DNA of 64,000 nt from Patescibacteria group bacterium (GCA_023379025.1 JAMCTH010000003.1:17114-81113); one strand, 5' to 3'; positions 8,138 through 58,662 are shown, counted from the first letter of the stretch. Program-made: numbers and translations. Notes: a model not told the origin generated them from the sequence alone.

Positions 8138-8149
8138 AATAAATTCCCT

Positions 8150-13738: not shown

Positions 13739-13778
13739 AACGGAAAGTTCTCCGGGCTTCCTTTCTCTGTTTTTCATG

Positions 13779-18366: not shown

Positions 18367-19907
18367 AGACTCCGGACAAACCTATATATCCTGTCCCGGC
18401 CGTATTGAGCGGTATCCGACAGCGCCCATCCGTTCATGCGTTTTTTGGGATAATCGCTTTTACAGATGGCCTCATAACAGGAAACCGCAATCTCCTTCCA
18501 TGCCGCAGCCTCTCCACCGACAGGACAATGATCCGAAATACATACCACAAAGAGCACCGGGTAATTCTCGTCATAGATAAATCTCGGCTGCACACCCTGA
18601 ACCGACAAAAAATACCGGAGATGATAGTCCGAAGTCACGTCAGGACTGAGGAGCGTAAATGCGAACGGTCTGCCGTTCGAGAGCGATACCATATCGCCGG
18701 TCAGCGTTCGGGCACGCGCGATATCTCCGGGTTCCGGGAAAACATCCCCCCGGGTAAACGGAAGCACCAGCAGCAGGACCAATATGGCTGCTACCAGATA
18801 TCCCGAAAAAACCCGGCGGAAAGGAAAAAGCACGTATCCCGCCAAAAAATACGGAATGACCGTCAGGTAATAGACATAGTGTTCAAACAGTGCTTCCCTG
18901 TACCGGACGACCGGTATACTCCCGAGAAGAAACCACAGGACAAAAACCACCGCCCAGAACTGACGGCTTATGAGGGGGACAATGAGGAGAATTCCCAGGA
19001 CCAGCCACTCGGGCTTTCCGGCGGGAACGCTCAGGATGTGGCCCGTCAGACCGAAAATCACGGATAGGGCGTCATGGAGACTTGATGCGAGAGGCCCGGC
19101 CGTTTCGGACGGGAGAAGCATGGAAACCAGAAAGTCGGAAAAATCGACGAACCGGTGGCTGGATTCATACACAAGATACGGCAGATTGACAAGTACCGCG
19201 CTTAAGACGCCCAAAAACGCCCAGAGCACTGCCTGTCTTCCCTTACCCCGGCGGATTTCCCGGATCATAAGGATAAAACCGATAAAGAAGGCGAAGAAGG
19301 TGTTGAATATCGCGGCGTAATGAAACTGCACGACAGCTCCAGCCGCGGCTCCAAGAAGTATAAACCACCGCGCGTCATGATCCCCGTATATTTTATAGAA
19401 TGCAAGAATGAGAAGTGCCGTAAAAAACGGAACGGGCGCAGGATTCCATATCGCGATGTTTTGATTGACAACGGACGGAGAAGCCGCATACAGAAGTCCG
19501 ATGCCGGTACCGATCATGCCGCCGAACATACGCGTTCCGAGGTACCAGAGAATAAGCGCCGTCAGTACGCCGAACGCAGCCATAGGAATGGCCATAGATA
19601 CGGGCGAGCCGTGGGTTATCGCGTACAAAGGCAAGAGCAGGTAATAGTAGAGAGGTCCCTGGCGGAACCCGAGACTGGTTTCCGGCCCCACGAGAGGCAG
19701 CGTGTGGTTTTCCAGCGTCTCATGCAGCACCTCGGCGGTTCTTCCCTGATCGGCGAGAAACCGGGTACGCGCCTCAAGGTGGTAAAACCGGAATGCCGCA
19801 GCCACTACAAAAACCGCTGCGGCCAACGCAAGATACCGCTTCTTTGATGCCGCCCTCTGATATACTATTGTCAGCATAGTACTTCGCATGAAACCGACAC
19901 GAATCAC
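18363..19907 (-). CDS. Family-C GT-C fold membrane glycosyltransferase
   Basis: 514 aa with the loop-1 motif FLADQGRTAEV...LVGPETSLGFRQGPLYYY. Alternative starts are Met7 (19889) and Met11 (19877). Any of the three starts overlaps the divergent gene at 19888. Confidence 0.6.
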   Translation of the reverse strand: MIRVGFMRSTMLTIVYQRAASKKRYLALAAAVFVVAAAFRFYHLEARTRFLADQGRTAEVLHETLENHTLPLVGPETSLGFRQGPLYYYLLLPLYAITHGSPVSMAIPMAAFGVLTALILWYLGTRMFGGMIGTGIGLLYAASPSVVNQNIAIWNPAPVPFFTALLILAFYKIYGDHDARWFILLGAAAGAVVQFHYAAIFNTFFAFFIGFILMIREIRRGKGRQAVLWAFLGVLSAVLVNLPYLVYESSHRFVDFSDFLVSMLLPSETAGPLASSLHDALSVIFGLTGHILSVPAGKPEWLVLGILLIVPLISRQFWAVVFVLWFLLGSIPVVRYREALFEHYVYYLTVIPYFLAGYVLFPFRRVFSGYLVAAILVLLLVLPFTRGDVFPEPGDIARARTLTGDMVSLSNGRPFAFTLLSPDVTSDYHLRYFLSVQGVQPRFIYDENYPVLFVVCISDHCPVGGEAAAWKEIAVSCYEAICKSDYPKKRMNGWALSDTAQYGRDRIYRFVRSL

Positions 19908-21540
19908 TTCCCTACCATATTATATAGCGATTATTCTGGTATCCATACTGCCCCTTGTGTCCTTATTCGCAACACCGGCGCTCTTTCATACCCACGACGG
20001 TGCGGTGCACCTCCCGAGAATGGCCGCGTACTTCAAGGCGCTCATGGATGGTCAGGTACTGCCGCGGTGGGCAGGCGACCTCAATTACGGGTACGGACTG
20101 CCGCTTTTTAACTTCATCTACCACACGCCGTATCTTATCTCCTCTCTTTTCATCGGACTCGGAGCGAGCCTCGTCATGACCTTTAAAATCGTTGCGGCTC
20201 TCAGCTTTATTCTGGCCGGGGTGTTTATGCTTCTGTTTGCCCGGGAACTATGGCATAACGACAGAACAGCATTGCTTGTTGCCGTATTTTACCAGTTTGC
20301 GCCGTTCCGGCTGGTGGAGCTTATGGTGCGCGGGAGTTTCGGCGAAATGTACGTCTATGCATTCATCCCGCTTGTCCTCTACTTTTTACTCCGCACACTT
20401 CGCGGGGCCAACGCACGGTATATTGCAGGCCTTGCGCTTGCTGCAGCACTTCTTGTCATTTCGCACAATTCGATAAGCCTCGTGATGTTCGGCGTCGCAG
20501 TGCTGTTTCTTTTCCTTATGCCGGCAACGGTTTCTTCGCGGATCCGTGGAGCCCTGGGGCTCGGAGCGGGACTGGCCGTTTCTGCGTTCTATTGGATACC
20601 GGCACTTCTCGAGCACAAATACACCTACGGCGACCTTTTTATGAAAAATCTGTTCCGGTCGTACTTTCCCTCACCCCTTGATCTTCTTTTCCCCAATATC
20701 ACCAATGCCCCCGCATTTCAAAATGGCGGCGTTTCCGTCCAGATCGGCCTTTTCCATATTCTGGCTTTCGCAGCCGTTCTGTTTCTTTTCCTCAAGCACG
20801 CGAAGCTCCCGGAGCATTCACGCCGTATCTGGTATCTGTCGCTTACGGCGGCGGCTGTTGCCGTCTTTTTCATGTCCACGTGGTCCCTCTGGTTCTGGAA
20901 CCACATCGCAATCCTCCGCCAGTTCCAGTTCCCGTGGAGGCTCCTGTCCGTCGTCAACCTGGCATCGGCACTCTCAGCCTCCGCATTTATGGAACTCACT
21001 TGGTTTAAAAAGCCGGCGGGCTACATCGCGATCCTTGTTCTCGTCATCATATCCACGGCCTGGTTCTGGAAGCCGCCGCTCGGATACGACCGCATAGAGA
21101 ACGAATCCGTCTACTGGAACTATCCCCTGGATACGACCTATTTCGGAGAAACGGACGTCATCTGGTCCGCCGGTCCCGCAAAAAAATACCCGCCGTCCCA
21201 GGTCTCGGTAATTGCCGGTAACGCAACGGTTTCTGCTGTCACAAAACGCTCCAACCTTCACACGTATGCAGTCGATGCGTCCGGACCGGCATCGCTTGTC
21301 GACGAAACAGAGTATTTCCCTGGGTGGCACGTCTATGTGGACGGAGCCGCCGTACCGATACAGTTCCAGGACCAAAACTGGCGCGGACTCATAACCTATG
21401 CGGTGCCGTCAGGCCGGCACACGGTCCGCGTGAAGTTCGACTTAAGCGGCATACAACGGCTGGGGACCATAATAAGCGTCGTTTCCGTCATAGCGCTTGG
21501 GACGCTCTTCCTTCTCGTCCCAAGGAAAACAGTCTCATGA
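19888..21540 (+). CDS. Family-A large polytopic membrane protein (HDG-motif)
   Basis: 550 aa with HTHDGAVHLPRMAAY...PRWAGDLNYGYGLPLFNFIYHTPY. It is the first gene of the only plus-strand block. Confidence 0.55.
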   Translation: MKPTRITSLPYYIAIILVSILPLVSLFATPALFHTHDGAVHLPRMAAYFKALMDGQVLPRWAGDLNYGYGLPLFNFIYHTPYLISSLFIGLGASLVMTFKIVAALSFILAGVFMLLFARELWHNDRTALLVAVFYQFAPFRLVELMVRGSFGEMYVYAFIPLVLYFLLRTLRGANARYIAGLALAAALLVISHNSISLVMFGVAVLFLFLMPATVSSRIRGALGLGAGLAVSAFYWIPALLEHKYTYGDLFMKNLFRSYFPSPLDLLFPNITNAPAFQNGGVSVQIGLFHILAFAAVLFLFLKHAKLPEHSRRIWYLSLTAAAVAVFFMSTWSLWFWNHIAILRQFQFPWRLLSVVNLASALSASAFMELTWFKKPAGYIAILVLVIISTAWFWKPPLGYDRIENESVYWNYPLDTTYFGETDVIWSAGPAKKYPPSQVSVIAGNATVSAVTKRSNLHTYAVDASGPASLVDETEYFPGWHVYVDGAAVPIQFQDQNWRGLITYAVPSGRHTVRVKFDLSGIQRLGTIISVVSVIALGTLFLLVPRKTVS

Positions 21541-23909
21541 ATAAACCGTTGCTTTCCTTTCTCATACCGCTCGTTTTCGCCGTGAGTATCGTTTCGCTGT
21601 TTTGTTACAAAACGGTCCTCCGGCAGGAAGTTCCGTTCCCCGGTGACCTCCTGGTCGCAGAGTACAATCCGTGGAAAACCTATTCGTTCCTGGGATACGC
21701 TCCGGGCTCCTATCCCAACAAGGCACAGTTTTTTGACACCCTGAGGCAGCTTTACCCGTGGCGGACCCTTGCAACGGAGCTCGCCAAACGCGGGACGCTG
21801 CCCCTGTGGAATCCCCATAATTTTGCCGGAAGCCCGCTCCTTGCCAACTTCCAGTCCGCGGTCCTCTACCCTCTGAATATGCTGTACCTCGCGCTTCCCC
21901 GGGTTCCCGCATGGACGATCCTCACCCTGCTTCAGCCGTTTCTCGCGCTCCTGTTTACCTATCTCTTTCTCAAAAAGCTCGGCGTGTCTTCCGTCCCCGC
22001 GTGGTTCGGAGCCGTAGCATACGCATTTTCTTCTTTCATGACCGTGTGGATCGAGTACAACACCATCGGGCAGGTGATCCTCTGGCTGCCGCTCATTCTC
22101 CTCTCTATCGAACATCTGAGGGGTTTATTTTCCGCTACATGGTATGTGACCGGCATTATCGCCCTGGTCATGGCGGCACTCGCCGGACATCCTCAGGTAT
22201 TTGGTTACCTCTGGGTATTTGCTCTTCTTTACATGCTCTTCCGCTTTCCCGGAAAAAACTACCCCGCGGGTATCGCGATGTTTGCCCTGCCGATTGCCAT
22301 AGCAGGGGCGCAGCTTGTGCCCGGAGCCGAGCTTACCCTCCTTGCCGCGCGGAGCAGTCACACGGCATCGGAGTTCCTTGATAAAATCCTGATCCAGCCA
22401 TGGCAGCTTCTCATGGTACTGGTGCCGGACTTTTTCGGTAGTCCCGCGACGCGTTCCTACTGGCCCGCGGATACGTATGTCGGCAAAGTCACCTCGGTCG
22501 GGCTTGCGGCGCTCCTGTTTGCACTGGGATATATCGCGACGAAGCGGGACAGCCTGACAAAATTTTTTCTCTCGGCAATCGGCGTCGTAATCCTTCTCGT
22601 CACTGCCAATCCCGTCACCGCAGTCATCTACCGCTATCCCGTTCCCTTTATCTCCACGAGCAGTCCGACGCTTATGGTATTTATCGCGGAATTTTCCCTC
22701 GCGGTTCTTGCAGCCCGCGGCATGGACGCATTCCGGAGACATGTATGGAATATCCGCGCCTTCACTCTGGTCATGGCACCTGTCGCGGCTGTCCTGGTTC
22801 TCCTCTGGGCCGGAGTGCTTCTTGCCGGGCATCTTCCTGTTTCCTGGGCGGCGCACCTTCCGGCATCACGCCGGGTGCTCTTCCTTGCTTCCGGCATCAG
22901 TGTGGTTTCCGCCCTTTTATTTCTTACGGCCAGAACCAAACAAAAGTTAATGACACTTATCCTCATCCTTTTTTTCTTCCTTGAGGTTGCGGATCTCTGG
23001 CAGGCATTCCGGAAGTTTACGCCGTTCGTGCCGACCACACTCGTCTACCCGCCGACGTCCGTTACCTTCTATCTTGGGGAACATGCCGGTATCAACCGGT
23101 ATTGGGCGCTTGGCGCCGCATCGATTGAGGCAAATTTTGCGACGCTCCTCGGCCTCTACGCTCCAGAGGGGTATGATCCGCTGTATCCGAAAATCTACGC
23201 GCAGTTTATCGGCGCAAGCCGCACCGGTACGCTGCCTCTATCATTTACGGACAAGACACGCTCGGACGCCGTAATCGCTCCTTCGGACGGGAGCGATCTT
23301 CTCACGAATCCGTTCCGGAGGCGCGTTCTCGATGTTCTGGGAGTGCGGTATATCCTGGACGTGCCGGCTAATCACAACACCGAGTCGACACTTCCCCCGG
23401 ACGTATTCCCGAAACTAGCTGACGTCAACGGCTGGACCGTACTTGAAAACACATCGGCTCTTCCGCGGATGTTCCTCGCCGGAGACGCGATCGCGGCCCG
23501 CGCTCCGGAGCAGTTTGCCCGGGAGTTCTTCTCCCCGTCGTTTGATCCGGGAAAGACGGTAGTTCTTGACCGTCCGCTCCCCATGCCGCTCAGTAACGCG
23601 GCAACAGGCTCCGTACATCTCCGTTCCTATACCGCTGACAGCGTCGAAGCGGAAACCCAAAGCAGCGGAACGAAACTTCTCTTCCTTTCGGATACGTATT
23701 ATCCGGGATGGAAGGCTTATGTGGACGGAAGACCCGCGGAGCTTTACCGCGCAGATTATGCATTCCGCGCGGTCCCGGTGCCCGGCGGCAAGCATACGGT
23801 CGTCATGCGGTACGAGCCGGCATCACTCTGGATCGGTATTGCGATTTCGCTCCTCGGAATTCTTGGTACAATAGCATCAATTGCTCTCTTTCAACGGAAA
23901 ACGGCATGA
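21537..23909 (+). CDS. YfhO-family membrane glycosyltransferase (family E)
   Basis: The N-terminal multi-TM region has LPLWNPHNFAGSPLLANFQSAVLYPLN, a WNPY-F-G motif I recognise as YfhO-like. It also has a large C-terminal domain. The start is trimmed from 21324 to the ATG at 21537, which overlaps the upstream TGA as ATGA. Confidence 0.65.
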   Translation: MNKPLLSFLIPLVFAVSIVSLFCYKTVLRQEVPFPGDLLVAEYNPWKTYSFLGYAPGSYPNKAQFFDTLRQLYPWRTLATELAKRGTLPLWNPHNFAGSPLLANFQSAVLYPLNMLYLALPRVPAWTILTLLQPFLALLFTYLFLKKLGVSSVPAWFGAVAYAFSSFMTVWIEYNTIGQVILWLPLILLSIEHLRGLFSATWYVTGIIALVMAALAGHPQVFGYLWVFALLYMLFRFPGKNYPAGIAMFALPIAIAGAQLVPGAELTLLAARSSHTASEFLDKILIQPWQLLMVLVPDFFGSPATRSYWPADTYVGKVTSVGLAALLFALGYIATKRDSLTKFFLSAIGVVILLVTANPVTAVIYRYPVPFISTSSPTLMVFIAEFSLAVLAARGMDAFRRHVWNIRAFTLVMAPVAAVLVLLWAGVLLAGHLPVSWAAHLPASRRVLFLASGISVVSALLFLTARTKQKLMTLILILFFFLEVADLWQAFRKFTPFVPTTLVYPPTSVTFYLGEHAGINRYWALGAASIEANFATLLGLYAPEGYDPLYPKIYAQFIGASRTGTLPLSFTDKTRSDAVIAPSDGSDLLTNPFRRRVLDVLGVRYILDVPANHNTESTLPPDVFPKLADVNGWTVLENTSALPRMFLAGDAIAARAPEQFAREFFSPSFDPGKTVVLDRPLPMPLSNAATGSVHLRSYTADSVEAETQSSGTKLLFLSDTYYPGWKAYVDGRPAELYRADYAFRAVPVPGGKHTVVMRYEPASLWIGIAISLLGILGTIASIALFQRKTA

Positions 23910-25546
23910 AAAGACTGTTCACGACCAAAAGGAATATGACGGTAACCCTCACGTTTTTCGTGATTCTCGCGATGTCCTTGGCTCTCCGAACCTACCGCTT
24001 AAACGACGTACCGCCAGGGGTCAACCGGGACGAAGCATCCATCGGCTATACCGCCTACTCGCTCCTTCAAACCGGCCGGGATGAGTACGGTCGGTTTCTG
24101 CCGCTTTCATTCGAATCTTTCGGGGACTGGAAACTCCCCCTCTACATCTATCTCACAGTGCCGGTCGTAAAAGTTCTGGGGATGACGGATGTTGCCGTCC
24201 GGACCGTATCGGTTCTTGCCGGGGTCGGAACGGTTGCCCTCACCTTTGTCCTCGTCCGGACGATGTTCGGCAGCGCCGTCCTTTCCCTCCTTTCTATGGC
24301 GGTTCTGGCACTGGCGCCTTGGCACATCCATATTTCCCGGGTCGAATCGGAATCCAATACCGCCGTATTCCTCGTGACCCTCGGGACAATTCTTTTCATA
24401 AAAGGCATACGCAAAAACGCGCCCTATCTCTTTCTGAGCTTTGTCCTCTGGGCGCTCACGTATTTCACCTATGCCGGAAACCATGTATTTACGACACTCT
24501 TTGTCCTGGGGATTCTCGTCCTGTATGTTCCCAGGATCCGCTCATCCCGCCAGGCCAAAATCGGCATCGGCGCATTTCTGGTCCTGGCCGCAGTTATCTT
24601 TTCGCAAACGCTGTTCGGGGCGGACCGGACGAAACTTACCGGCATCAGTATCTTCAACTCCCCGAACGTCATCTACCGGAACATCGATCTCCCGCGGCTG
24701 GATTATGCCGATCCCCGATCGCTTCCGGCAGTTCTTTTTCATAACAAAGTTCTCTATGGCCTAACGACTGCAGTCGAGAATTACGAAAAGGCTTTTTCCG
24801 CACAGTTTCTGACGATCATGGGCGGCACGAATCACGCGCACAATATCGAAGGGTTCGGGAACATGTACCTTGTGGAGTTTCCACTTCTATTCCTCGGGCT
24901 TTTTTGGCTCCTCGGCAAACGGAAAAACGTTCACGCGAAACTTCTCCTCTGGTGGATCCTGATTTCACCGGTCGCCGCGAGCATCACCTCGGATGCGCCG
25001 CACAGCAACCGCATGTTTGCCGTGTTTCCGGCGCTTGCCGTCACGGTCGCGCTCGGGATCTGGTGGATCATGACGGAACTCATTGAAGGGAAAAGATGGC
25101 GGGTCCTCGCTGCCGCAGCGCTCATCCTCACTTATGCCATAAATGTCGGCCAGTACCTGGACCAGTACTACAACCATTTCCCGCTCCACGAGTACCAGTA
25201 CTGGGGGGTAGGGTACCGCAGCGTTGCCGATATGGTAAACAGTCCGGAATACAAAACGGCAAATGTCATCATGTCCCACCCGGAACAGTCGCCATACATC
25301 TTTATGCTCTTTTACGGAAACTACAACCCTGCCCTCTACCGGAAGCAGGCGGTTCGCTACCCACCGACGCCGGACGGGTTTTACCATGTCAGGGCATTCG
25401 GGCGCTACCGGTTCCGGGCAATTGACTGGGGACAGGATATGAAGCTCCACAACACCATCCTGGTCGACGACTACACCGCAATCCCCGACGCCTACCGGGG
25501 AAAAGCCCTGCACCTCAAACAGTTTGGAGTAGTATATTTGAAGTAG
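23906..25546 (+). CDS. Family-D GT39/PMT_2-type membrane glycosyltransferase
   Basis: The motif is NRDEASIGYTAYSLLQTGRDEYG. The start is trimmed from 23708 to the ATG at 23906, which gives an ATGA overlap with the upstream stop. Confidence 0.7.
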   Translation: MKRLFTTKRNMTVTLTFFVILAMSLALRTYRLNDVPPGVNRDEASIGYTAYSLLQTGRDEYGRFLPLSFESFGDWKLPLYIYLTVPVVKVLGMTDVAVRTVSVLAGVGTVALTFVLVRTMFGSAVLSLLSMAVLALAPWHIHISRVESESNTAVFLVTLGTILFIKGIRKNAPYLFLSFVLWALTYFTYAGNHVFTTLFVLGILVLYVPRIRSSRQAKIGIGAFLVLAAVIFSQTLFGADRTKLTGISIFNSPNVIYRNIDLPRLDYADPRSLPAVLFHNKVLYGLTTAVENYEKAFSAQFLTIMGGTNHAHNIEGFGNMYLVEFPLLFLGLFWLLGKRKNVHAKLLLWWILISPVAASITSDAPHSNRMFAVFPALAVTVALGIWWIMTELIEGKRWRVLAAAALILTYAINVGQYLDQYYNHFPLHEYQYWGVGYRSVADMVNSPEYKTANVIMSHPEQSPYIFMLFYGNYNPALYRKQAVRYPPTPDGFYHVRAFGRYRFRAIDWGQDMKLHNTILVDDYTAIPDAYRGKALHLKQFGVVYLK

Positions 25547-25680
25547 CTACTGAAGAAACCTTTAAGTTAATTTTTTTCTCCGAGTCTTTTTCTTCGTTCT
25601 CCACCTAAGGAAATTACTGCCTATCAATACTTTATGGTTACGTCGGAAAAAACCAAGTTGTACGGCGTGAAAAACTGTAG

Positions 25681-25866
25681 TTAGTCAAAAATTACTTTAT
25701 TTGAGGAGTAATTTTTTCTGTAGTTTTCGACAATCTCCATCTGCATCTTGTTAGATTCATGCAAGGCACGTTTAATTATCCGCTTTTTTTCTTTTGCGGG
25801 GTAATCAAAGTATGAACGACCCGTTGATACTTTGCCGGTAAGCTTCCTGATAATATTCCTGATCAT
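25681..25866 (-). CDS. Small basic hypothetical protein (61 aa) coupled to the zeta-like gene
   Basis: It lies in the AT-rich island, and its ATG overlaps the zeta-like 3' ORF stop as ATGA. I recognised no motif. Confidence 0.3.
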   Translation of the reverse strand: MIRNIIRKLTGKVSTGRSYFDYPAKEKKRIIKRALHESNKMQMEIVENYRKNYSSNKVIFD

Positions 25867-26578
25867 ATCTCTAATTTATATTGATCCAATGCCTTAGACA
25901 AGGATTCTGGAGTATACCCCAAATTTACATACTTATCAACATTATGCACGTTAAAATCAGACTTTTCAATACCCTTCAGTATGTTCTTCTTAATAACAGT
26001 AACCTCTATTTCTGGGTATACTCGCTTAATTTTGGCTACTGTATCTAAGGCGTCAAAAAAAGATTTTAGAAAAAATCCTTGGGTATAGGTCTTCCTTCTA
26101 ATTTTTCTCTTTTTTTTGTTAATCCCCACGATACCAACGGATCTTGATAAATATATACAATTGATATTTTACGCTTATGCTTAATACACCTTTTAATATT
26201 AGCTTCTGCATGATCATATTGAGACATTGTGGAGTCAAGCAAAAAATCAATATCATTTGCAAATACATGGTCAAGTAATTTGTTTACCCCCGCATAAGCC
26301 GCACCCTGAATTTCCATAGCATTTGTCTTATTGTATTGCGGAAGGAAATCCCTTATTTCATCGGCATCTATCCGAACAATATGGCGTGAATTATCATGTT
26401 CACATAGCTGCTGAATAAAGGCTTTAGAATATTCAGTTTTTCCAGCACCTGGAGAGCCAGACATAAAGAATGCTGCGGGGTTCGAAACTGTTAGATAAAT
26501 ATCGGGATCAGCGAAACGTTTAATGAGTTCCTTCTTGTGAGATCTAATAAACAGTACGGCATCATCACTTTTACTCAT
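25863..26578 (-). pseudogene. Zeta-toxin-family P-loop kinase gene interrupted by a -1 frameshift (or slippage site)
   Basis: The 5' ORF 26066..26578 has a Walker A motif GSPGAGKT and an RIDADEIRDFLPQY segment like zeta/PezT. Its 3' continuation is a second ORF, 25863..26129, in the -1 frame. The two frames meet at an A8 run, acaaaaaaaagag. Confidence 0.6.
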
Positions 26579-26735
26579 TGCGGTTAATTATACAACATGA
26601 TTATTTAGCAAACCTATCTGTAGGTAATTCACCATACGCTCTGTCGATAAGAATCGATACAACTCCACCCACGAGGCTATGTCTGTGTTCGAAAATCACT
26701 CCCTCCGCCTCGTCTCCTCAAAAAAACTATCCTGC

Positions 26736-28214
26736 TTATTTCTTCCACTCTTCCGTTGCGCGGTAGACGGATTCGGCTGTGACCGGTATCCATCCTGCCC
26801 GGGAGAGTTCGGCGCTGGTCGAGCTGGTCAGGTCCACCACCTGGTACCCGAGTTCTTCCCCGGCAGCAACCGGACGTTTGAAGCGCCCCGAGTAGGTTGC
26901 GATCCCGACTCCCATGGCAAGTCCGTCCGCGGAAAGTTTCCCCGAGGCATCCAGGTAGAGAGCAAGCGGTGCACTGACTCCTACGGTTTTGTACTTGAAA
27001 TCATAAACGGCAAATGTTTTTCCCGGGTAATCAGTGATAAGCTTGTTCGCCCAGCCACCGGTTTGAATCGCCGTGAAGTTTGATGCCTTCGCAATCTGTT
27101 GGACCGATGCCCACACCGAAAGCATAACTACTGCCGCGGTTATCGCGACACCAAGACTTTTTTGCCAGCGGATGAGCCGCGATAGCACCCAAGCCGAGGC
27201 AAGGATTACGAACGGGTGCGCGAATACGAGATAGCTGGAAAAAAGCGGGGTCCGTACATACCGGAGCGAGAGAATGAAAAGGAGAAGCGAACCCAGTATG
27301 TACCCCCAGTATTTCGGCAGATCCCGGCGCAGGGCGGAGACGGCAGCGGAAACCCCTACTCCTCCCATCAGCGCCATACCGACCCACTTATTTCCTCCGG
27401 TTATCAATCCCCATTCCCCCGGCCAGAAAGAAACGAGGTAGGTAAGCCATCTTCTTCCGAGCATTTCATAGGTCACACGGTACTGGCCTACCGTGTAGTA
27501 GCCGATAAACCCGCGGACATTGATAAACTGGTGCAAAAGGTCAAAAAGAACAAGCGGCAGTAACGGAAGCGTGAAACCGACGAGAAAGAGTGCCGTTGCT
27601 GTCGTTCCGGGAAACCCCCAGAGGAGGACGAGTACCGGAAGGGTAAAAAGAAGTGCCGCGCCTTCCAGGTGTATACTCGCCGAAAGCGCAATGAGAAAAC
27701 CCGTAAGGAAAAGGTACCGGGCCTGTCTGGTTTTTCCCCACCGGATACCCGCCCAGATGACCCCGAGGGCGCAGAGCCCAAGCGGCGACTGGTTTGTGAG
27801 ATTTACGGACTGCCCGATCGCGGCGGTTGATACCGCGGCCAACGCTCCTGCGATAAGTCCCAGGCGCGGGCTTTCCATTTCGCGCCCCACCATGTAGATC
27901 ATAAATACAAACAATACGGACAGGCACGTCATGGCAACCCATGGTGCAATAAGTTCTCCACGCCCTAAAAACGTTCCGGCCATGATGAACCAGTACCATT
28001 CCCCTCCGGTCTGGAACGGTCCGGCGGAAGAAAACGGACCCAAAAGCGGAAGTTTATGGGCCGCCAGGGCAAACCGCGAAAGGAGTGCGTCATGCGCCTG
28101 GTCATAGGCAAGCCCCCAGCGGGACGGATAGTCCACAAACCGTAAAAGAACGGAAGCAAGGAGAATCAGGGGAAGAAACAGACGGTCACGGCTTACCGGG
28201 GTAGATCGTTTCAT
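26736..28214 (-). CDS. Family-C GT-C fold membrane glycosyltransferase
   Basis: The loop-1 motif is YDQAHDALLSRF...LLGPFSSAGPFQTGGEWYW. The start is trimmed from 28373 to Met54 at 28214, which gives an ATGA overlap with the upstream GT2 gene's stop. Confidence 0.55.
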   Translation of the reverse strand: MKRSTPVSRDRLFLPLILLASVLLRFVDYPSRWGLAYDQAHDALLSRFALAAHKLPLLGPFSSAGPFQTGGEWYWFIMAGTFLGRGELIAPWVAMTCLSVLFVFMIYMVGREMESPRLGLIAGALAAVSTAAIGQSVNLTNQSPLGLCALGVIWAGIRWGKTRQARYLFLTGFLIALSASIHLEGAALLFTLPVLVLLWGFPGTTATALFLVGFTLPLLPLVLFDLLHQFINVRGFIGYYTVGQYRVTYEMLGRRWLTYLVSFWPGEWGLITGGNKWVGMALMGGVGVSAAVSALRRDLPKYWGYILGSLLLFILSLRYVRTPLFSSYLVFAHPFVILASAWVLSRLIRWQKSLGVAITAAVVMLSVWASVQQIAKASNFTAIQTGGWANKLITDYPGKTFAVYDFKYKTVGVSAPLALYLDASGKLSADGLAMGVGIATYSGRFKRPVAAGEELGYQVVDLTSSTSAELSRAGWIPVTAESVYRATEEWKK

Positions 28215-29131
28215 GGTTCGGATAGGAGTCGTCTGTCGGAAACAGCTGCCGATGCGGCGGCGCATTTCCTGCTTCGGAGTATCGCGGGACAGAGGATACA
28301 CGCGCGGGCAAACCCCAGAAGCATCGGCATGTCTCCTCGAAAGACTGCACGGATCAGATGGTACGGAAGCCACAGAAGGTGGCTCATCATGAGCCCCGTG
28401 TCCGTAATGTTTTTCCAGATAAAGATATACTGGTTCCGGTATGCAATAGTTGAAACCGTATTCCCGGAAAACTTCTGCCGGATAGCACCGGTCTCATGGT
28501 AGTGCCGGACAACGCTTTTTCCTTCAAACGCTATCCGGTACCCTGCTTTCCGCGCGCGGTAGGAGAGATCTATATCTTCCCAGTAAAATGGATTGTACAG
28601 AAGATCCATTCCGCCCAGCCGGTCCCAGATGTCTTTACGGAACATCGCGCTCCCGCCGGAGGCCCAGGATGTGTCGCTTCGACCGGTGTCTCCTCTCCGG
28701 TGTACTGCCACACCCCGCTGCCATGTCATGATTCCCCGGCCGCGCTCAACGGTCTGCCCGTGTTCCATGCTTTTATCGAGAAACCCGACGGCGAACATAT
28801 CCGGATCGGAGAAATGAGCGATGCCGGGAGGCAGATAATCCTTCTCCGGCTCAATATCACTATTGAGAAGTACGACTATCGGCGTCGTACTTTCGGCAAC
28901 ACCGCTATTGACTGCCGCGGCAAATCCTCCGCGTGTTCTCCGGCGGATGACACGTATGTCGGGAAACTTCCCGGCAAGATAGGTGCCGGTGCCGTCATCG
29001 GAAGCATCATCAACCACAACGATCCTGCTTTTGCCGGAGTAAGCAAAGACCCGCGGGAGATGTTTTATGAGGAGCTCCTTCCCGTTCCAGGTCGGGATAA
29101 CGATGGTGATATCTTTTGTCGTGTAGTTCAT
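28211..29131 (-). CDS. GT2-family glycosyltransferase
   Basis: 306 aa with ITIVIPTWNG and VVVDDASDDGT GT-A motifs. Confidence 0.75.
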   Translation of the reverse strand: MNYTTKDITIVIPTWNGKELLIKHLPRVFAYSGKSRIVVVDDASDDGTGTYLAGKFPDIRVIRRRTRGGFAAAVNSGVAESTTPIVVLLNSDIEPEKDYLPPGIAHFSDPDMFAVGFLDKSMEHGQTVERGRGIMTWQRGVAVHRRGDTGRSDTSWASGGSAMFRKDIWDRLGGMDLLYNPFYWEDIDLSYRARKAGYRIAFEGKSVVRHYHETGAIRQKFSGNTVSTIAYRNQYIFIWKNITDTGLMMSHLLWLPYHLIRAVFRGDMPMLLGFARACILCPAILRSRKCAAASAAVSDRRLLSEP

Positions 29132-31431
29132 AGGCCCGATATCCGGTAGCTTACCGTATGCCGTCCTGCCGGCACGACGACCCCGGCATACAGGTAATTT
29201 GTTCTGTACACCGGCACTCCCTTGCCGTCAACAGCAGCCCGCCAACCGGGCAGGAAACTTATGCCGATTACAAGAAGCCGCGGGACGGCAACGGATACAT
29301 CCGCCGTAAGACCGGCATCGGTATACGATGCAAGCACTACATGCTCATCTGAATGTATCGGAAGCGACAATACGGGGACCACCCCTTCGACAACAGCGCC
29401 GTATCCGGAGATAAAGCCGGGCCGGAACATACGGGCAAGCGCCTTTTCTCCGGTTTCCGCGGTATCCACTTCCCGGGCCAGATACACTCTCGGAAGCGCA
29501 CGGCTGTCTTCATAGACAATGGTCTGTCCCTCGGAAAACACCTTTCTGAGATAGGGTTTGTGGAGCTCCTCGAGACTTAGGACATAGCGCGCACCGAAAA
29601 GCGGAAACACCGGAGACTCCGTATTGGTGAACGTGATGATGCGGTTGAACCCAAACGGCGGCCGGACGTCGGGTTTGCCGCGTTCGGAAACGGCCGCAAG
29701 TTCTTCATACCGCGAGAAGTAAAGGGGGTCGTACCCTCCGATATCCTCTATACCGTAGTATCCTGCGGTATTCGGCGGCAGGAGTCTCGGGTCAAGGCTT
29801 GCAACCCGGAAGGGCTTGGGCTGTTTCTCGAGAAAAAGGAGGACCGGAGTTTCCGGGAAAAAGTAGCTCCGCGGCGTAAACGGCGTGAATTTGCCGGCAA
29901 AACGGAAAAGGTCAAAAACGACAAGAACCAGAAGTGCGCCGGAAAGTAGTCCGGAAATAAACTTCCTCCCCCCGAATATCCGGAAAGCCAATAACACAGC
30001 CAGAGTCGCTCCGGTAAGTACGGCCGGCAGGATCAGATTTCTCCGGCTGACGAGGAGGTCCGTCGCAAGATTCGGCATATGGGAGAAACCTCCGGCAAAT
30101 TTCGTAACAAGAAAAAGAAGGAGGAGCGCTGCTCCAAACAACACTGCAAGTATGGCCGGGGCGCGATCCCGTTTTTTGAGCCACACGTCAAATCCTATGA
30201 CGGCAAGGACGGCGAGCGAAAAGTCTACAACCACCATAAGGCGCGTCGGCTGGAGAACGGACCAGACGGGTATGTGCAACCGGTACGGCAGGGAGGATAT
30301 GCCGTCCGGAAGCATCAGAAGAAGTGCTGCCAGAAGACCCGCAACCCAAAACCACACCCGTTTTCCTCCTACACGGAGAGCGGCATAAAACGCAAATATG
30401 AGCGGTATGATCCCGATATAGCCTACGAACTCTCCGTAGTTCCAGACTCCCCAGTAATTCATGGTTGCCGGATTGCCGAAAAAGTCCGGAGCCAGAAACT
30501 GTAAGAGATTCTGCCAGGGAAGAAACCATCCGGACTGCATCCACTGGTCCCGGGAAAGGACGCGGGATGATACAGATATAAACTCCGCAACCGGAAGCCA
30601 CTGGAAAAGCGTGAGAAGTACGGCTATGCTTGCCGCCGTAGCTACGGTCAATACCCCTTCCTGAACCCGTGAGGTTTTGAGGAATTTTCTCTGCAACCAG
30701 ATCCGGGCAAGGACGTATGCGGCCTCAACAAGTACTGCATAGAGAAATACCTGGCTGTGACCCGCGAAAAACTGGCAGGCAAGCGATCCCGCGAGCACCA
30801 TAAACCACACGGCCTTGTTCCGGGACTGCCGCTTCTTTCCGGCATAGGCAAAAAGGTTATCTGCCGAAAGCAGTATAAGCGGTATCCAGAGTGCCGTATG
30901 GACAATCGTCCCCCAGGTGAGCCACGCGACGGAAAAACCGCAAAAACTCCATGCCGCCGCTCCGAGAAAGGATGCCGGCGGACTTATGCCCGTATTCCGG
31001 AGGAAAAGGTAGAGGAAAAACCCTGCAAGAAGCGGCGTCAGCACTATGAGCGCGGTCCATGCCTCGGGAAAGGGAAAGAGGAAAAACAGAATATTCAGAG
31101 GATAGAGCGCTCCGCTCTGGATATTGCCGATAAGCGATGTCCCGGAAAACGCATAGGGATTCCAGAGGGGCAGCGTCCCGCTTTTCAGATCGTCAACAGC
31201 GATCTTCCTCCAGGGAATCTGCTGCCGGACGGGATCGGTAATGAGAAAATTTTTGTACGGGACGCCGCGGGGATTGGTCGCGGCATAGAGGTCCCGCCAC
31301 GGATAGTAAAGCCCGATCAGCGTATCTGTCGGTACGGGTATGCGGCCCCGGAGAATTCCCGGCAGGAAAAAGCCGACCGCAACGGCAAACATTATGCAGA
31401 GCATGACAGCGTCATAGCGCATACGCCTCAT
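29128..31431 (-). CDS. YfhO-family membrane glycosyltransferase (family E)
   Basis: The motif is LPLWNPYAFSGTSLIGNIQSGALYPLN. The start is trimmed from 31593 to Met55 at 31431, which gives an ATGA overlap with the upstream GT4 gene's stop. Confidence 0.65.
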   Translation of the reverse strand: MRRMRYDAVMLCIMFAVAVGFFLPGILRGRIPVPTDTLIGLYYPWRDLYAATNPRGVPYKNFLITDPVRQQIPWRKIAVDDLKSGTLPLWNPYAFSGTSLIGNIQSGALYPLNILFFLFPFPEAWTALIVLTPLLAGFFLYLFLRNTGISPPASFLGAAAWSFCGFSVAWLTWGTIVHTALWIPLILLSADNLFAYAGKKRQSRNKAVWFMVLAGSLACQFFAGHSQVFLYAVLVEAAYVLARIWLQRKFLKTSRVQEGVLTVATAASIAVLLTLFQWLPVAEFISVSSRVLSRDQWMQSGWFLPWQNLLQFLAPDFFGNPATMNYWGVWNYGEFVGYIGIIPLIFAFYAALRVGGKRVWFWVAGLLAALLLMLPDGISSLPYRLHIPVWSVLQPTRLMVVVDFSLAVLAVIGFDVWLKKRDRAPAILAVLFGAALLLLFLVTKFAGGFSHMPNLATDLLVSRRNLILPAVLTGATLAVLLAFRIFGGRKFISGLLSGALLVLVVFDLFRFAGKFTPFTPRSYFFPETPVLLFLEKQPKPFRVASLDPRLLPPNTAGYYGIEDIGGYDPLYFSRYEELAAVSERGKPDVRPPFGFNRIITFTNTESPVFPLFGARYVLSLEELHKPYLRKVFSEGQTIVYEDSRALPRVYLAREVDTAETGEKALARMFRPGFISGYGAVVEGVVPVLSLPIHSDEHVVLASYTDAGLTADVSVAVPRLLVIGISFLPGWRAAVDGKGVPVYRTNYLYAGVVVPAGRHTVSYRISGL

Positions 31432-32483
31432 GGTGATCCGGGCCTTTCGATAAGCGCATCGAAGCGCTTGAGAAATACCTCGACGCGGAAATCCCCAGCG
31501 CGACGGATGGCAGCACGGGAAACGGCTGCCGCTTCCTTCTCGCCTGCTATTATGTCTTTGGTTCTGCGGATGAGTTCCTCTTCCCCAGACCAAAGGAAGC
31601 CGTTTTGGCCGTCGGTCACGATTTCAGAAAGCCCGCCCCCCCGGTAGACAACCGGAATGCATCCGGCTGACATAGCCTCTACCGTACTTATGCCGAAATG
31701 TTCGGCATATAACGGCTCATCCTCCCCGTAGCCGGCCGCATGCCAATATACCCGCGCTTTCCGGTATAGCCGGATAAGCTCATCGTGACCCGCGTTCGGC
31801 ATGAGGGTAACCGGGAGATTTCCGACGGATTTCTCCAGAGTACGGAAAAATGGCCGGTCGCCTTCGAGAAGCCCTCCAGCGAGGACCAGTTTCCAGCCGG
31901 AGAGGTTTTTCTCTTTGACAAGCGCGGCAAACGCACGGATAAGGAGGTCCTGCTTTTTTGCGGTATGGACCGGGGTGAAACGTCCGACCGATAAAATCAT
32001 ACGTTCTTTTTCCTGCCCTTTCCCCGGAGAAATTTCCGGAACCGGCGGATAGATGACGGATGCTCTCCGGCCGATGCGCGGATCCATGTGCCGCAGGGTA
32101 AAGTACGAATTGCAGACAATGTCGCCGTATCTTGCGAGTTTGAAGGGAGAAAGCGGCAGCTTCGGAAAAGGCATCTGAAAATGCAGGATATTTCGTCGGG
32201 CGAGCGAGGTCGGGATGCTACCATCACTCAATACGAAAATTATATCGAACCCGCTGGTTGCACGTAACTTTGTGAATAAACTTTTTATCCGGAATATATT
32301 TTGAGTCACTTTTATGTTCGATACATCAATACCGAGCCTTTCTGACAGCATGGATAAAACTGAAGGATCATCCCAGAACACCCGGACGTCATGCGTTTTC
32401 GCCCAGTGGGCAGCAAGCGTCAGAATATACCGCTCTCCTCCGCCTGCGGTAGGCAGATATGGGCTATAAAAACCTATTTTCAT
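31428..32483 (-). CDS. GT4-family glycosyltransferase
   Basis: 351 aa. The segment EHFGISTVEAMSAGCIPVV is the GT4 E-X7-E region. Confidence 0.8.
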   Translation of the reverse strand: MKIGFYSPYLPTAGGGERYILTLAAHWAKTHDVRVFWDDPSVLSMLSERLGIDVSNIKVTQNIFRIKSLFTKLRATSGFDIIFVLSDGSIPTSLARRNILHFQMPFPKLPLSPFKLARYGDIVCNSYFTLRHMDPRIGRRASVIYPPVPEISPGKGQEKERMILSVGRFTPVHTAKKQDLLIRAFAALVKEKNLSGWKLVLAGGLLEGDRPFFRTLEKSVGNLPVTLMPNAGHDELIRLYRKARVYWHAAGYGEDEPLYAEHFGISTVEAMSAGCIPVVYRGGGLSEIVTDGQNGFLWSGEEELIRRTKDIIAGEKEAAAVSRAAIRRAGDFRVEVFLKRFDALIERPGSP

Positions 32484-34897
32484 ATGCGTTTCCTCCGGCG
32501 GCCGTACGGCCTCTGCGCGACATATACCACGGTTCCCCCGGCCAGAAAAACCAGGACGCCCATGGCGATCATACTCCCGAACCGAAACGATGCCGGATCA
32601 TAGACAAACGTCACGGTATGCTTCCCCTCCGGCACGGCAACCGCACGGAAATCATAATCCGCGCGGTAGACCGGAGCTTCATGTCCGTCTACATACGCCC
32701 TCCAGCCGGCATCATACGTATCCGTCAGGACAAGCAGCTTATTCGCCTGAGCATCCGTGCGGAGCTCCACGCGGTCCGGCAGGTATGAGGTAACCGTTAC
32801 GTTTCCGTCTCCCTTCGCCGGAGGAACTTCCGGCTCTGTTTCAAGCACTGCAGCGTCGCGGAGACTGAAGTCCGGAGCAAACATCGTATCGATAATCTGC
32901 TGCCGGCCGCTCTCCACCCGATATCCCGATACGAGAAAGGATCTCGGAAACGCGTGGGTATTTTCAAACACCTGGTAATAGGCATCTTCAAATACCTTGA
33001 CGTAATTGGGATACTTCCAGTACGGATAGGTCCATCCGTACCTTCCGTCGCTGATCCGGTGGACCAGGTATTTGGCCCCGAGGAACCCGAGGATCTTTTC
33101 CGAATACGCTCCGTCTTTCGGAAACTGGACAAGGGAGCGCTCCGGAGCGCGGATCGTTCCGTTTACGGCCGTTGATATGAATTCGCCGTAGCGTTCCTGA
33201 TAGACGGCATCGTAGCCGACTATCGACTGCAGACGGTTTGTTCCGGTAAATTCGTTATAGATGTTCCCGAAGACCCGATTGACTCCGGAGGCATTACTCA
33301 GAAATGTCCCGACTGCCGTCGGAGGGTAGACGTACTCCTTCGGATCAAAGGGCATCCACTTTCCCGCATACCGGAGCATCTCAAATGCAGAAAGACCGAT
33401 AAGGACAAAAAGCAGGGTCTTTCGGACGTTTATACCGCGGAGGAAAAATCCCGCTCCTGCCGCGATAAGTCCCACCGAAAGTACCCCTGTCGGAAGGATG
33501 AGATTCCGCACTGCAACCCCGGCCCATTCGGACGGAAGTCCCATATGCCGGAGGGTCACGGTCCAAAGAAGAACTAGCGCGATAACGATCGGAACCGCGG
33601 CTTTCAGGAGATTTTTTATCCTGCGGTCTCTCCAGTCGGAACAAAGCGCATCGATCCCGAAAGCGCCGACAACTGCGAGCGAAAAACTGAAGAGGACGAT
33701 GATCCGCGAGGCCGCACTCGTGGCTATCACCGGAACTTTTGACCAAAACAGGAACGCGGAAAGCGGTGTTTTGGTAGCAAGGAGCAGTGTCACGACGCAA
33801 CTCACCAGGAAAAACCAGATCCGCTTATCCTTCAGCCGGTTGACTGCTTCATACAGGGCAAACGTTAGCGGAATCACGCCGATGTAGCTCGCCCACTCGG
33901 CATAGTGGCCGAACCAGTCGTTTCTCGTCACCGGATTTCCGTAATAATCCGGAGCAATTAGGGTGACCAGATAATTCCATGGAATGACTTCCCCGCCCTT
34001 TCCGAAGAGGACGCTTCTGACCGACGCGAGGTACGCATACGTTGCCGGCAAAAGCTGCGGAAGGCTCAGGAGAATTCCGCAAAAGGAAAAACCCGTAAGA
34101 TAGAGGGCCTGCCGGTATTTTTTTGAAGCTATCGTTTCCCAGAGAAGGTATGCAAAGGACATAGCGGCCACATACAGGCTTATCTGAAAATGCCCTGACA
34201 GGAACGACATCATAACCCCGAAACTCACGCCGAGAAGCGGAAACCATCCCCCGCGGTCGAGGGAGCGGCGGACGGACCAGAGGATAAACGGCAGCCAGAG
34301 AACGGCATAGCCGAGTGTTCCGTATGCCATCCATACGGTCAAAAACCCTGAGAACATAAACGCGATGCCGCCAAGAAGCGATGCAGGTCTCGTGACACCC
34401 GAGGATCGGAGAAAGAGGAACATGAAGAGTCCGGCAAGGAGGGGCTGCAGAAGAACAAGGACGCTCCATGCGTCGATCATAGGCAGGACCATGAACAGGA
34501 GATTAAACGGTGACAGGACGGCGCTCTGATAATTAGCCAGCTGTGGCGTGCCGGAGAAGCTGTACGGATTCCAGAGCGGCACCTCGGGAATTTTCCAGGT
34601 CATAACGGTCAGGACTTTCCACGGAAACATCTGCGTGATGACATCCGGCATGGCGTTATTTTTGACTGCCATGCCTCCCATCGCACTCCAGGGCGGAAAA
34701 AAGTTCATGAGATACCGTGACGGAAACGGCACGAGCCCGTGAAACCACCACGGCAAGGCAAAAAGCGCCCAGACCGCAAGGATGCCTGCAACCGGCCAAA
34801 ACCAGAAGAAACGCGTGAGGCGCCGTACGTTCATAATGACTTCCGGATACATCTGTCCGGCATTCTCATGGTAACGCACCGCACGGTGAGTTGGCAA
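32480..34897 (-). CDS. YfhO-family membrane glycosyltransferase (family E)
   Basis: 805 aa with VPLWNPYSFSGTPQLANYQSAVLSPFN. Alternative starts are Met16 and Met22. Confidence 0.65.
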   Translation of the reverse strand: MPTHRAVRYHENAGQMYPEVIMNVRRLTRFFWFWPVAGILAVWALFALPWWFHGLVPFPSRYLMNFFPPWSAMGGMAVKNNAMPDVITQMFPWKVLTVMTWKIPEVPLWNPYSFSGTPQLANYQSAVLSPFNLLFMVLPMIDAWSVLVLLQPLLAGLFMFLFLRSSGVTRPASLLGGIAFMFSGFLTVWMAYGTLGYAVLWLPFILWSVRRSLDRGGWFPLLGVSFGVMMSFLSGHFQISLYVAAMSFAYLLWETIASKKYRQALYLTGFSFCGILLSLPQLLPATYAYLASVRSVLFGKGGEVIPWNYLVTLIAPDYYGNPVTRNDWFGHYAEWASYIGVIPLTFALYEAVNRLKDKRIWFFLVSCVVTLLLATKTPLSAFLFWSKVPVIATSAASRIIVLFSFSLAVVGAFGIDALCSDWRDRRIKNLLKAAVPIVIALVLLWTVTLRHMGLPSEWAGVAVRNLILPTGVLSVGLIAAGAGFFLRGINVRKTLLFVLIGLSAFEMLRYAGKWMPFDPKEYVYPPTAVGTFLSNASGVNRVFGNIYNEFTGTNRLQSIVGYDAVYQERYGEFISTAVNGTIRAPERSLVQFPKDGAYSEKILGFLGAKYLVHRISDGRYGWTYPYWKYPNYVKVFEDAYYQVFENTHAFPRSFLVSGYRVESGRQQIIDTMFAPDFSLRDAAVLETEPEVPPAKGDGNVTVTSYLPDRVELRTDAQANKLLVLTDTYDAGWRAYVDGHEAPVYRADYDFRAVAVPEGKHTVTFVYDPASFRFGSMIAMGVLVFLAGGTVVYVAQRPYGRRRKRI

Positions 34898-46257: not shown

Positions 46258-46283
46258 GTAGCGAACGTAAACGCTTCTCTCTC

Positions 46284-47039: not shown

Positions 47040-47071
47040 ACGTTTCTGTCACGCTCTGTGTGAACCGCGGT

Positions 47072-50770: not shown

Positions 50771-50819
50771 GGTATTCTCCTCCTTTATAGACTATACCCA
50801 TTATACATAGTCCCGTATC

Positions 50820-54015: not shown

Positions 54016-54044
54016 ATACCGCACACTGAATGTTTTTGTACCGT

Positions 54045-55252: not shown

Positions 55253-55256
55253 AGTA

Positions 55257-56464: not shown

Positions 56465-56505
56465 TCTTCTATGATAGACACACCGCGGGGAAAATAAAAG
56501 AGCGT

Positions 56506-58030: not shown

Positions 58031-58057
58031 GTAAAACCTCAAGCTAGCTGATGCTTC

Positions 58058-58560: not shown

Positions 58561-58662
58561 ACCCGGTGTAGCGTCTGTCTCAGCAGACTGGTTTGGAAGC
58601 CGTAAATAGGTGATTAAAACTGCTGAAGTCTAGACTAGGTCGATTCTCGATAAAATCTCACT

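Follow-up and report, generated by a model that had tools for sequence, protein, structure and literature searches.

What do YfhO-family proteins do in a bacterium of the Patescibacteria, where three of them are encoded in a single 64 kb stretch of DNA? The stretch (the window, analysed at its full length together with about 4 kb of the left and about 6 kb of the right flank) is part of a metagenome-assembled genome (MAG) of the Microgenomates group, and its three YfhO-family genes are referred to here as paralogs A, B and C. The canonical function of YfhO is the glycosylation of lipoteichoic acid (LTA) or wall teichoic acid (WTA) (PMC5836110, PMC8035078). We found that A, B and C belong to a conserved island that spans 55 kb or more and encodes about 20 glycosyltransferases of the GT-C type, these three included. 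We give even chances to the proposal that they are active extracytoplasmic GT-C enzymes, which would be fed by the DPMS-like synthases and the flippases of the island and would each contribute one particular linkage to a complex glycan or glycoconjugate of the envelope, assembled by the island as a whole.

Paralog A is encoded on the plus strand at 21537..23909 (790 amino acids), paralog B on the minus strand at 29128..31431 (767 amino acids) and paralog C, also on the minus strand, at 32480..34852 (790 amino acids from the ATG at 34852). The open reading frame (ORF) of C extends to a TTG at 34897, where the initial annotation of the window had begun the gene; the coordinates of A and B are confirmed by a gene call made independently on this contig, which puts the start of C at the ATG, not at the TTG. 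A hidden Markov model search with Pfam PF09586 (YfhO), of which the curated gathering cut-off is 28.5 bits, gave 84.8 bits for A (E = 6e-24), 46.1 bits for B (E = 3e-12) and 76.9 bits for C (E = 1.5e-21, searched as 32480-34897), all above the cut-off, and no other Pfam family matched any of the three at E ≤ 0.01. The assignment of all three to the YfhO family, already made in the initial annotation, therefore stands. As annotations they are ordinary: A is 100% identical to a protein that NCBI already calls 'YfhO family protein [Patescibacteria group bacterium]'. Pairwise identity among A, B and C, taken over the full length, is 31-34% (BLAST, E between 1e-88 and 1e-116).

The shared LP(L)WNP motif had also been noticed before, and in the six-frame translation of the window the strict pattern L(P)(L)WNP[YH]xF[AS]G[ST][PS] has exactly three matches, one per paralog: LPLWNPHNFAGSP in A (21798..21836, plus strand), LPLWNPYAFSGTS in B (31135..31173, minus strand) and LWNPYSFSGTP in C (34544..34576, minus strand). 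Its core, W-x4-F-x-G, sits in the first extracytoplasmic loop (EL1), immediately before the second transmembrane (TM) helix. In an alignment of A, B and C with the annotated YfhO proteins of Microvirga (LPLWNPYHFGGHP) and Parabacteroides, W91, F96 and G98 are invariant. These outgroups came from a tblastn search against plasmids, in which the matches were limited to the C-terminal domain and fell in Bacteroidota and Alphaproteobacteria. Because the core is also present in Microvirga and Parabacteroides, the alignment marks it as a signature of the YfhO family, not peculiar to this locus.

A scan of species-representative genomes yielded at least 528 related stretches, from which the best 80 loci, at species level and only those with an informative organism name, were taken for the analysis of synteny. 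These 80 carry Patescibacteria or Microgenomates-group labels; the labels of many others are uninformative or evidently wrong. The nearest relatives of YfhO-A (45-50% identity) are found in MAGs of Levybacteria, Gottesmanbacteria and Woesebacteria, of which the near-complete ones have about 1.0 Mb (among them one chromosome of 995,214 bp), and the host is therefore a small-genome bacterium of the candidate phyla radiation (CPR), Microgenomates group, and not a Firmicute.

Orthologs from other species share 38-49% identity with their own counterpart among A, B and C of the window (B-type orthologs 42-49%) and about 30% with the other two. Since orthologs are more similar than paralogs, the duplications are old and the copies non-redundant; on sequence comparison A, B and C are ancient orthogroups, that is, three distinct conserved paralog classes. 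We also considered whether they might be decaying duplicates, and rejected this, since the ORFs are intact, the ortholog groups conserved and key residues near-invariant. Some relatives harbor a fourth type of YfhO, with about 30% identity to any one of A, B and C, and there are three to four paralogs per genome. The fourth type (for example L004, 13965-16442, with similar ORFs in L005, L010, L014, L030, L038, L040 and L041) often adjoins a methyltransferase gene and lies in the slot that in the window holds a Zeta-toxin-like gene. The suggestion of three parallel activities, made in the initial annotation, gains plausibility from the three conserved classes, but the three activities would be only part of those of a much larger set of GT-C enzymes.

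From the first base of the window to 55306 nearly every gene is one of glycan synthesis. The tally is about 20 GT-C genes, 10 genes of glycosyltransferase family 2 (GT2), 3 of family 4 (GT4), two Wzx flippase genes, rmlABCD and ugd; to the right of the window lie housekeeping genes, and no tRNA gene was found in the window. The polytopic GT-C-type proteins total about 11,000 codons (about 33 kb) and fall into five paralog families (genes are named here by their first coordinate): YfhO with three members (A, B and C), PTPS_related-like with five (4870-6447, 8908-10590, 19888-21540, 40343-42040 and 42034-43575), group A of PMT/PMT_2 with four (12083, 13779, 15449 and 23906), group B of PMT_2 with five (10587, 18363, 26736, 47072 and 43572) and GT87/MptA_B with three (17062, 45100 and 6450). 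The five PTPS_related-like proteins share with YfhO the C-terminal beta domain (YYPGW..VDG..H.V; YxPGW..VDG) and have in EL1 the pattern P-[TM]-H-D-G ... PRW...GYG.P; with the beta domain in common, the window holds eight members of a broader YfhO-like superfamily rather than three.

Over the 80 loci two gene orders recur. In the first, which is that of the window, the genes 12083, 13779, 15449, 17062 and 18363 are on one strand and 19888, YfhO-A and 23906 on the other, followed by a variable slot and by 28211, YfhO-B, 31428, YfhO-C, 34948 and 35688. The second is colinear: 46284, 45100, 43572, then 19888, a YfhO-A-like gene and 23906, then 42034, 40343, (39616), the flippase gene 38171, 37236, 35688, 34948 and (YfhO-C). 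Taken together, the two orders indicate that all parts of the island belong to one lineage-wide gene set, in which the only non-conserved slot is that of the Zeta-toxin-like gene and PMT_2 26736. That the island is a mobile or horizontally acquired element was rejected because the GC content is uniform (about 0.53-0.56) in all but this one slot and synteny is kept in about 80 species.

As to the enzymes themselves, an AlphaFold2 model of YfhO-A, built on an alignment of 45 sequences, had a predicted local distance difference test score of 90.2 and a predicted template modelling score of 0.91. Compared by Foldseek with the structures in the PDB, the model matched AftD (E = 1e-6) and ArnT (E = 5e-6), then PglB, STT3 and AftA. 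Sequence identity to the structural matches, as obtained in the comparison with mycobacterial GT-C enzymes, is only about 11-12%; a search of the YfhO-A sequence against the PDB chains found zero relatives, and neither this search nor Foldseek returned a solved structure of a YfhO protein. By this model, paralog A has a GT-C fold with an N-terminal multi-TM domain and a long first extracytoplasmic loop. AftD, ArnT, PglB, STT3 and AftA all use polyprenyl-phosphate or polyprenyl-diphosphate donors, and the donor of the YfhO paralogs would be a polyprenyl-phosphate sugar.

For all three paralogs, the prediction is a membrane domain with about 12-13 TM helices plus a large extracytoplasmic domain rich in beta structure. 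In A, membrane helices extend to residue ~494 and are followed by a soluble beta-rich region (~495-760) and a last helix (762-789), the C-terminal anchor; C has the same layout, the last TM helix included, whereas B stops directly after the extracytoplasmic domain. In YfhO of B. subtilis, which has 13 TM helices, a large extracellular region precedes the last TM helix (PMC5836110), a plan that is shared by A and C and, apart from the missing last helix, by B; its extracytoplasmic region has 389 residues as compared with about 270 here. The terminal helix is missing in 18 of 18 B-type sequences (that of the window included), which end 5-14 residues past a G-x-H-x-V motif, and is present in most A- and C-type sequences.

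Among 120 A/B/C-type sequences, the charged residues D67 (99%), R272 (99%), R521 (100%) and K493 (100%) are near-invariant, as are R76, D486 and D547. Conserved acidic positions occur singly: D37 (88%), D67, D486, D547 and D730. D37 (numbering of A), the first Asp of EL1, aligns with the Asp of the 'HD' that follows TM1 in the PTPS_related-like paralogs; it is conserved in A- and B-type sequences, and D, N, T or R is found in the C-type. D67 is invariant in the C-type orthologs compared at the D37 position (L017, L019, L035, L058 and L059). By analogy with ArnT, PglB and PMT, activation of the acceptor would fall to an EL1 Asp and binding of the donor phosphate to conserved Arg/Lys residues, which makes D67, D37, R272 and R521 the candidates for a catalytic role. 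The catalytic base of the family would be D67, unless the C-type enzymes work differently.

The genes that adjoin the three paralogs bear on the claim of the initial annotation that each YfhO is found near a GtrB-like synthase and within a few genes of a GT2 or GT4. YfhO-A is flanked by two GT-C genes. The upstream one (19888..21540, plus strand) encodes a PTPS_related-type protein (Pfam PF10131, E = 1e-15) whose C-terminal ~110 residues match all three YfhO proteins (BLAST), the beta domain being that held in common; it overlaps YfhO-A by 4 nt, is translationally coupled to it, and has an ortholog that precedes that of YfhO-A in many related loci. The downstream one (23906..25546, plus strand), PMT/PMT_2-like and in the same operon, is a conserved partner in 46 loci. 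The nearest GT2 gene to A is about four genes off, on the opposite strand. YfhO-B lies between a GT2 gene (28211..29131, minus strand) and a GT4 gene (31428..32483, minus strand; Pfam Glycos_transf_1, E = 7e-25; synteny conserved), and YfhO-C between this GT4 gene and the first of two genes of soluble GT2 proteins upstream of it (34948-35739 and 35688-36602, both on the minus strand). The GT2 28211 has no TM helix and is syntenic with B in at least 20 loci; its best NCBIfam matches are MftF, EpsD and a rhamnosyltransferase, its PDB matches are weak, and that to DPMS covers the N-terminal ~110 residues only. The best PDB match of 34948 is GmaR of Listeria. From their sequences, the GT2 and GT4 proteins flanking B and C are soluble glycosyltransferases and not GtrB-like. 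The nearness to a GT2 or GT4 says little, because an island with 13 GT2/GT4 genes makes such nearness expected. The GT2 beside the YfhO gene of Parabacteroides is not DPMS-like either, so adjacency of a GtrB-type GT2 is not universal in the YfhO family. Upstream of 19888, the divergent GT-C gene 18363-19877 (minus strand) lies only about 10 bp away, which means that the promoters of both directions must fall within coding sequence; a promoter and terminator scan over 19.5-29.5 kb was uninformative.

Genes of the GtrB kind do occur in the window, 5-18 kb away from the YfhO genes. The most complete is 48686..49798 (minus strand; Pfam GT2), a polyprenyl-phosphate sugar synthase of the DPMS/GtrB/ArnC type with a fused GtrA-type TM domain (PF04138, E = 3e-17), which matches the dolichol-phosphate mannose synthase (DPMS) of P. 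furiosus (5MLZ) over its full length (E = 9e-42), followed by ArnC and GtrB. DPMS, ArnC and GtrB are also the top solved relatives of three GT2 proteins encoded on the minus strand at 46284..47039 (without a TM domain), 39616..40365 and 3157..3843 (DPMS/AglJ-like); by NCBIfam, 1119 is a weaker DPMS-like candidate. The ortholog of 46284 is found two to three genes upstream of a YfhO-A-like gene in 37 related loci. Two flippases of the Wzx/MOP family are encoded, one at 38171..39628 (minus strand; Pfam Polysacc_synt_3, E = 2e-52; NCBIfam MOP flippase), the other, divergent and with no Pfam match of its own (its homologs carry PF01943 and PF13440), at 1903..3147 (minus strand). A free-standing GtrA gene was not found in the window, where the GtrA/DPMS TM domain PF04138 occurs only as the fusion in 48686.

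This arrangement makes it very improbable that the three proteins work as CsbB/GtrB-YfhO pairs that glycosylate WTA or LTA, in the way known from Bacillus, Staphylococcus and Listeria, an analogy that the initial annotation had drawn. It has in its favor the family itself and its canonical role: YfhO of the CsbB-GtcA-YfhO systems of B. subtilis and S. aureus, and Lmo1079 of L. monocytogenes, belong to the same Pfam family PF09586, and the expected logic of GT-A synthase, flippase and GT-C enzyme is the same. However, the adjacent GT2/GT4 genes are not GtrB/CsbB-like, and a two-gene operon of YfhO with a GT2 of the CsbB/GtrB type is not found here. B. subtilis is described with three GT-A/GT-C pairs in all (PMC8035078), whereas here three to four YfhO paralogs per genome are found among about 17 other GT-C genes, in a CPR host. 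No gene of the TagB/TagF (Glyphos_transf), LtaS, TagO or TagA type was recognised in the 64 kb window or in the two flanks, a literature search gave no report of teichoic acids for the lineage and pointed to rhamnose polysaccharides, and YfhO proteins are known that glycosylate proteins (PMC12041528).

What the island would make instead is suggested by its sugar-nucleotide genes (49811..55306, minus strand), which encode a dehydratase/decarboxylase-like short-chain dehydrogenase/reductase (SDR; 49811), UDP-glucose 6-dehydrogenase (50820) and RmlD, RmlB, RmlC and RmlA. For Patescibacteria that possess rml genes, it has been suggested that rhamnose wall polysaccharides take the place of teichoic acids (PMC11809585), and systems of GT-A synthase, flippase and GT-C enzyme decorate rhamnose wall polymers in Gram-positive bacteria (PMC8035078). 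The presence of rmlABCD fits the former and the island agrees with the latter precedent, and a complex rhamnose-containing envelope glycan or glycoconjugate is therefore the most likely product. The SDR 49811 matched no NCBIfam model of UXS/ArnA, Gmd or GalE above its cut-off. Past the left edge of the window the island continues (L086, 11095-15289) with a GT2, an SDR epimerase/dehydratase, a second GT2 and an ArnB-like aminotransferase of the DegT/DnrJ/EryC1 family. Together with ugd, SDR 49811, the ArnC-like 48686 and the ArnT-like PMT_2 47072, this extension hints at a lipid donor of an amino-pentose or an amino-deoxy sugar.

The proposed mechanism is as follows. At the cytoplasmic face the DPMS/GtrB/ArnC-like GT2 proteins 48686, 46284, 39616 and 3157 would load sugar onto polyprenyl phosphate; flipping the lipid-linked sugar outward would be the task either of the GtrA-type domain that 48686 carries or of the two flippases of the Wzx type; and each YfhO paralog would then move a lipid-linked sugar onto an acceptor at the outer face, each forming its own linkage. 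The soluble GT2 and GT4 enzymes, the supply of dTDP-rhamnose and UDP-glucuronate, and the GT-C set would in this way assemble and decorate a rhamnose-containing envelope glycan or glycoconjugate.

Several points weigh against this proposal. The enzymatic role it gives to the CPR YfhO proteins is a prediction from sequence and from the model, and the envelope glycan as acceptor is a candidate only. Teichoic acids or proteins, and not neutral polysaccharides, are the acceptors of those YfhO enzymes that have been characterised best (PMC5836110, PMC12041528). Paralog C of the window has Arg in place of the first EL1 Asp. A DxD motif is not conserved, and EL1 is without any DxD, DxE or ExD; this is, however, a weak criterion, because the DxD motifs of B. 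subtilis YfhO are likewise not conserved (PMC5836110). The rml genes lie at one margin of the island and may contribute to a different product. Finally, the window yielded no recognisable phosphoglycosyltransferase for initiation, Wzy polymerase, WaaL-type ligase or LCP ligase, and a complete polymer pathway is accordingly putative.

The lack of a recognisable Wzy or WaaL in a window with two Wzx flippases and many soluble GT2/GT4 enzymes could also mean that one or more of the YfhO paralogs replace them, acting on Wzx-flipped polyprenyl-diphosphate oligosaccharides as an oligosaccharyltransferase, ligase or polymerase. The similarity of the model to PglB, STT3 and AglB is nearly as strong as that to AftD. 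We nevertheless regard such en bloc transfer or polymerisation as improbable: four to five DPMS-like synthases argue for monosaccharide donors, and Wzy is often undetectable by sequence and may be encoded elsewhere in the genome. To our knowledge, no member of the YfhO family transfers oligosaccharides en bloc or polymerises them.

The main rival to the glycan-assembly proposal is protein O-glycosylation, in which the YfhO paralogs would move sugar from a polyprenyl-phosphate sugar to Ser/Thr-rich extracytoplasmic regions of membrane or surface proteins, for example pilins or wall-associated proteins. There is precedent in streptococci, where PgtC2 and PgfM1, which with PgfM2 are of the same Pfam family as A, B and C, glycosylate Ser/Thr-rich disordered protein regions; PgtC2, PgfM1 and PgfM2 act outside the membrane and use an undecaprenyl-phosphate sugar made by GtrB/PgfS (PMC12041528). 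PgfM1 and PgfM2 are moreover the only NCBIfam matches of YfhO-A, but they score 27.6 and 27.2 bits as against cut-offs of 1400 and 1500, and over the C-terminal ~70 residues only. The DxD reported for PgtC2 and PgfM1 (PMC12041528) has no conserved equivalent in the A/B/C-type sequences. The flippase 38171 weakly matches an NCBIfam model named 'O-glycosylation flippase', and two membrane proteins with S/T/P-rich linkers are encoded in or beside the island (36606-37223 and a CAP-domain protein at 55508-56464); the former, however, is conserved in only two related loci. Since about 20 syntenic GT-C enzymes, many soluble glycosyltransferases and the rml genes fit polymer assembly better than decoration with single sugars, we judge protein O-glycosylation rather unlikely, though deserving serious attention.

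Among systems that assemble or decorate envelope polysaccharides, two resemble the island. The decoration of rhamnose wall polysaccharides (GacI/GacK/GacL, CsdAB, CsdCD, SccN/M) likewise combines rml genes, a GtrB-like GT2, a Wzx or GtrA flippase and GT-C enzymes (PMC8035078, PMC9574508). The GT-C enzymes of the Gac, Csd and Scc systems are, however, of the PMT_2 type and not YfhO, they number one to three as compared with about 20 here, and the export of the rhamnan backbone by an ABC transporter was not seen in our case. In mycobacteria, lipomannan (LM), lipoarabinomannan (LAM) and arabinogalactan are made by extracytoplasmic GT-C enzymes that act in series and are fed by a DPMS-like synthase (AftA-D, Emb, MptA/B, PimE, Ppm1). 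The likeness to the logic of LAM and arabinogalactan synthesis follows from the number and diversity of the GT-C enzymes, from the three island genes of the GT87/MptA_B family and from the AftD-like fold, AftD being the best structural match of YfhO-A. Unlike in mycobacteria, no decaprenyl-phosphate-arabinose pathway and no genes for a phosphatidylinositol anchor were seen here; phylum and envelope are different, and the likeness is one of logic, not of family membership.

Going further, and more tentatively, one may propose that this dedicated island of Microgenomates, whose genomes have about 1 Mb, uses lipid-phosphate monosaccharides to build the main envelope polymer for the most part extracellularly, by means of its roughly 20 GT-C enzymes with at least three to four YfhO subfamilies of ancient origin. 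It would then be, in the CPR, an undescribed assembly line like that of LAM and arabinogalactan, in which YfhO serves a class of acceptor that is neither teichoic acid nor Ser/Thr-rich protein. A literature search found no paper that treats Patescibacteria or Microgenomates in connection with YfhO or GT-C enzymes.

The remaining genes of the island and its surroundings are described here for completeness. Nine GT-C genes form a minus-strand block at 4870..19877 (PTPS_related-like 4870 and 8908; GT87/MptA_B-like 6450 and 17062; PMT_2 10587, 12083, 13779, 15449 and 18363), which also holds the GT2 gene 8150 and the small gene 7589. Five more form a second minus-strand block at 40343..48679 (PTPS_related-like 40343 and 42034; PMT_2 43572 and 47072; GT87/MptA_B 45100-46257). 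The PMT_2 gene 26736..28214 (minus strand), in the variable slot, is present in only one or two related loci. Beside it in this slot, which has a GC content of 0.49-0.50 as compared with 0.54 around it, are a gene for a kinase of the Zeta-toxin/AAA_33 type (26066-26578, minus strand; Pfam E = 4e-29) and the ORFs 25681-25866 (minus strand) and 25944-26048 (plus strand); an epsilon-antitoxin-like partner of the Zeta-toxin-like gene was not detected. Zeta toxins phosphorylate UDP-GlcNAc, and with this substrate the presence of such a gene inside a glycan island is curious.

The protein encoded at 36606-37223 (a TM helix, an S/P-rich linker and a beta domain) was rejected as a conserved acceptor or accessory protein in view of its narrow distribution. 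Directly after rmlA comes the gene of the CAP/SCP-domain membrane protein (55508-56464, minus strand), in which a Pro/Thr/Ala-rich linker precedes the C-terminal TM helices; that it is an acceptor of O-glycosylation is a speculative possibility. At about 56000-60000 of the window there is a low-GC insert (0.44-0.45) with genes for a BrnT toxin (58835-59149, E = 3e-21) and a BrnA/CopG-like antitoxin (58663-58923), a fragment of an SDR gene (~58319-58507) and an orphan ORF of 322 amino acids without a Pfam match (57062-58030). The insert splits the genes of N6-threonylcarbamoyladenosine synthesis (56506-56838, 59189-59815 and 59848-60792), which are a very short TsaB/TsaD-like ORF (110 amino acids), Sua5/TsaC and TsaE; the TsaE ORF has an Arg/Pro-rich N-terminal extension of ~150 residues, probably an over-called start. 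A cell-division module at 61244-63997 comprises FtsE (63347-63997), FtsX (62447-63343) and, at 61244-62437, a coiled-coil protein in which a peptidase C39-like domain is weakly matched.

CPR bacteria (Patescibacteria) are thought to live attached to other cells, which makes the chemistry of their little-characterised surface central to their biology. What goes beyond the known picture is that genomes of about 1 Mb conserve an island with about 20 GT-C enzymes, that the YfhO subfamilies are ancient and that a teichoic-acid context is absent from the window and its flanks. The YfhO family is thereby extended well beyond the Firmicutes, and its natural variation can guide work on the mechanism of YfhO: D67, R272 and R521 are near-invariant, one subfamily is devoid of the first EL1 Asp and another of the anchor helix. 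The genes of the GT-C island can be taken as concrete targets in heterologous expression, glycan analysis and metaproteomics. About 20 extracytoplasmic glycosyltransferases, the order of whose genes is conserved in Levybacteria, Gottesmanbacteria and Woesebacteria, point to a complex surface glycan typical of the lineage. If the island is indeed an extracellular line of glycan assembly, it would probably shape the attachment of these bacteria to other cells.

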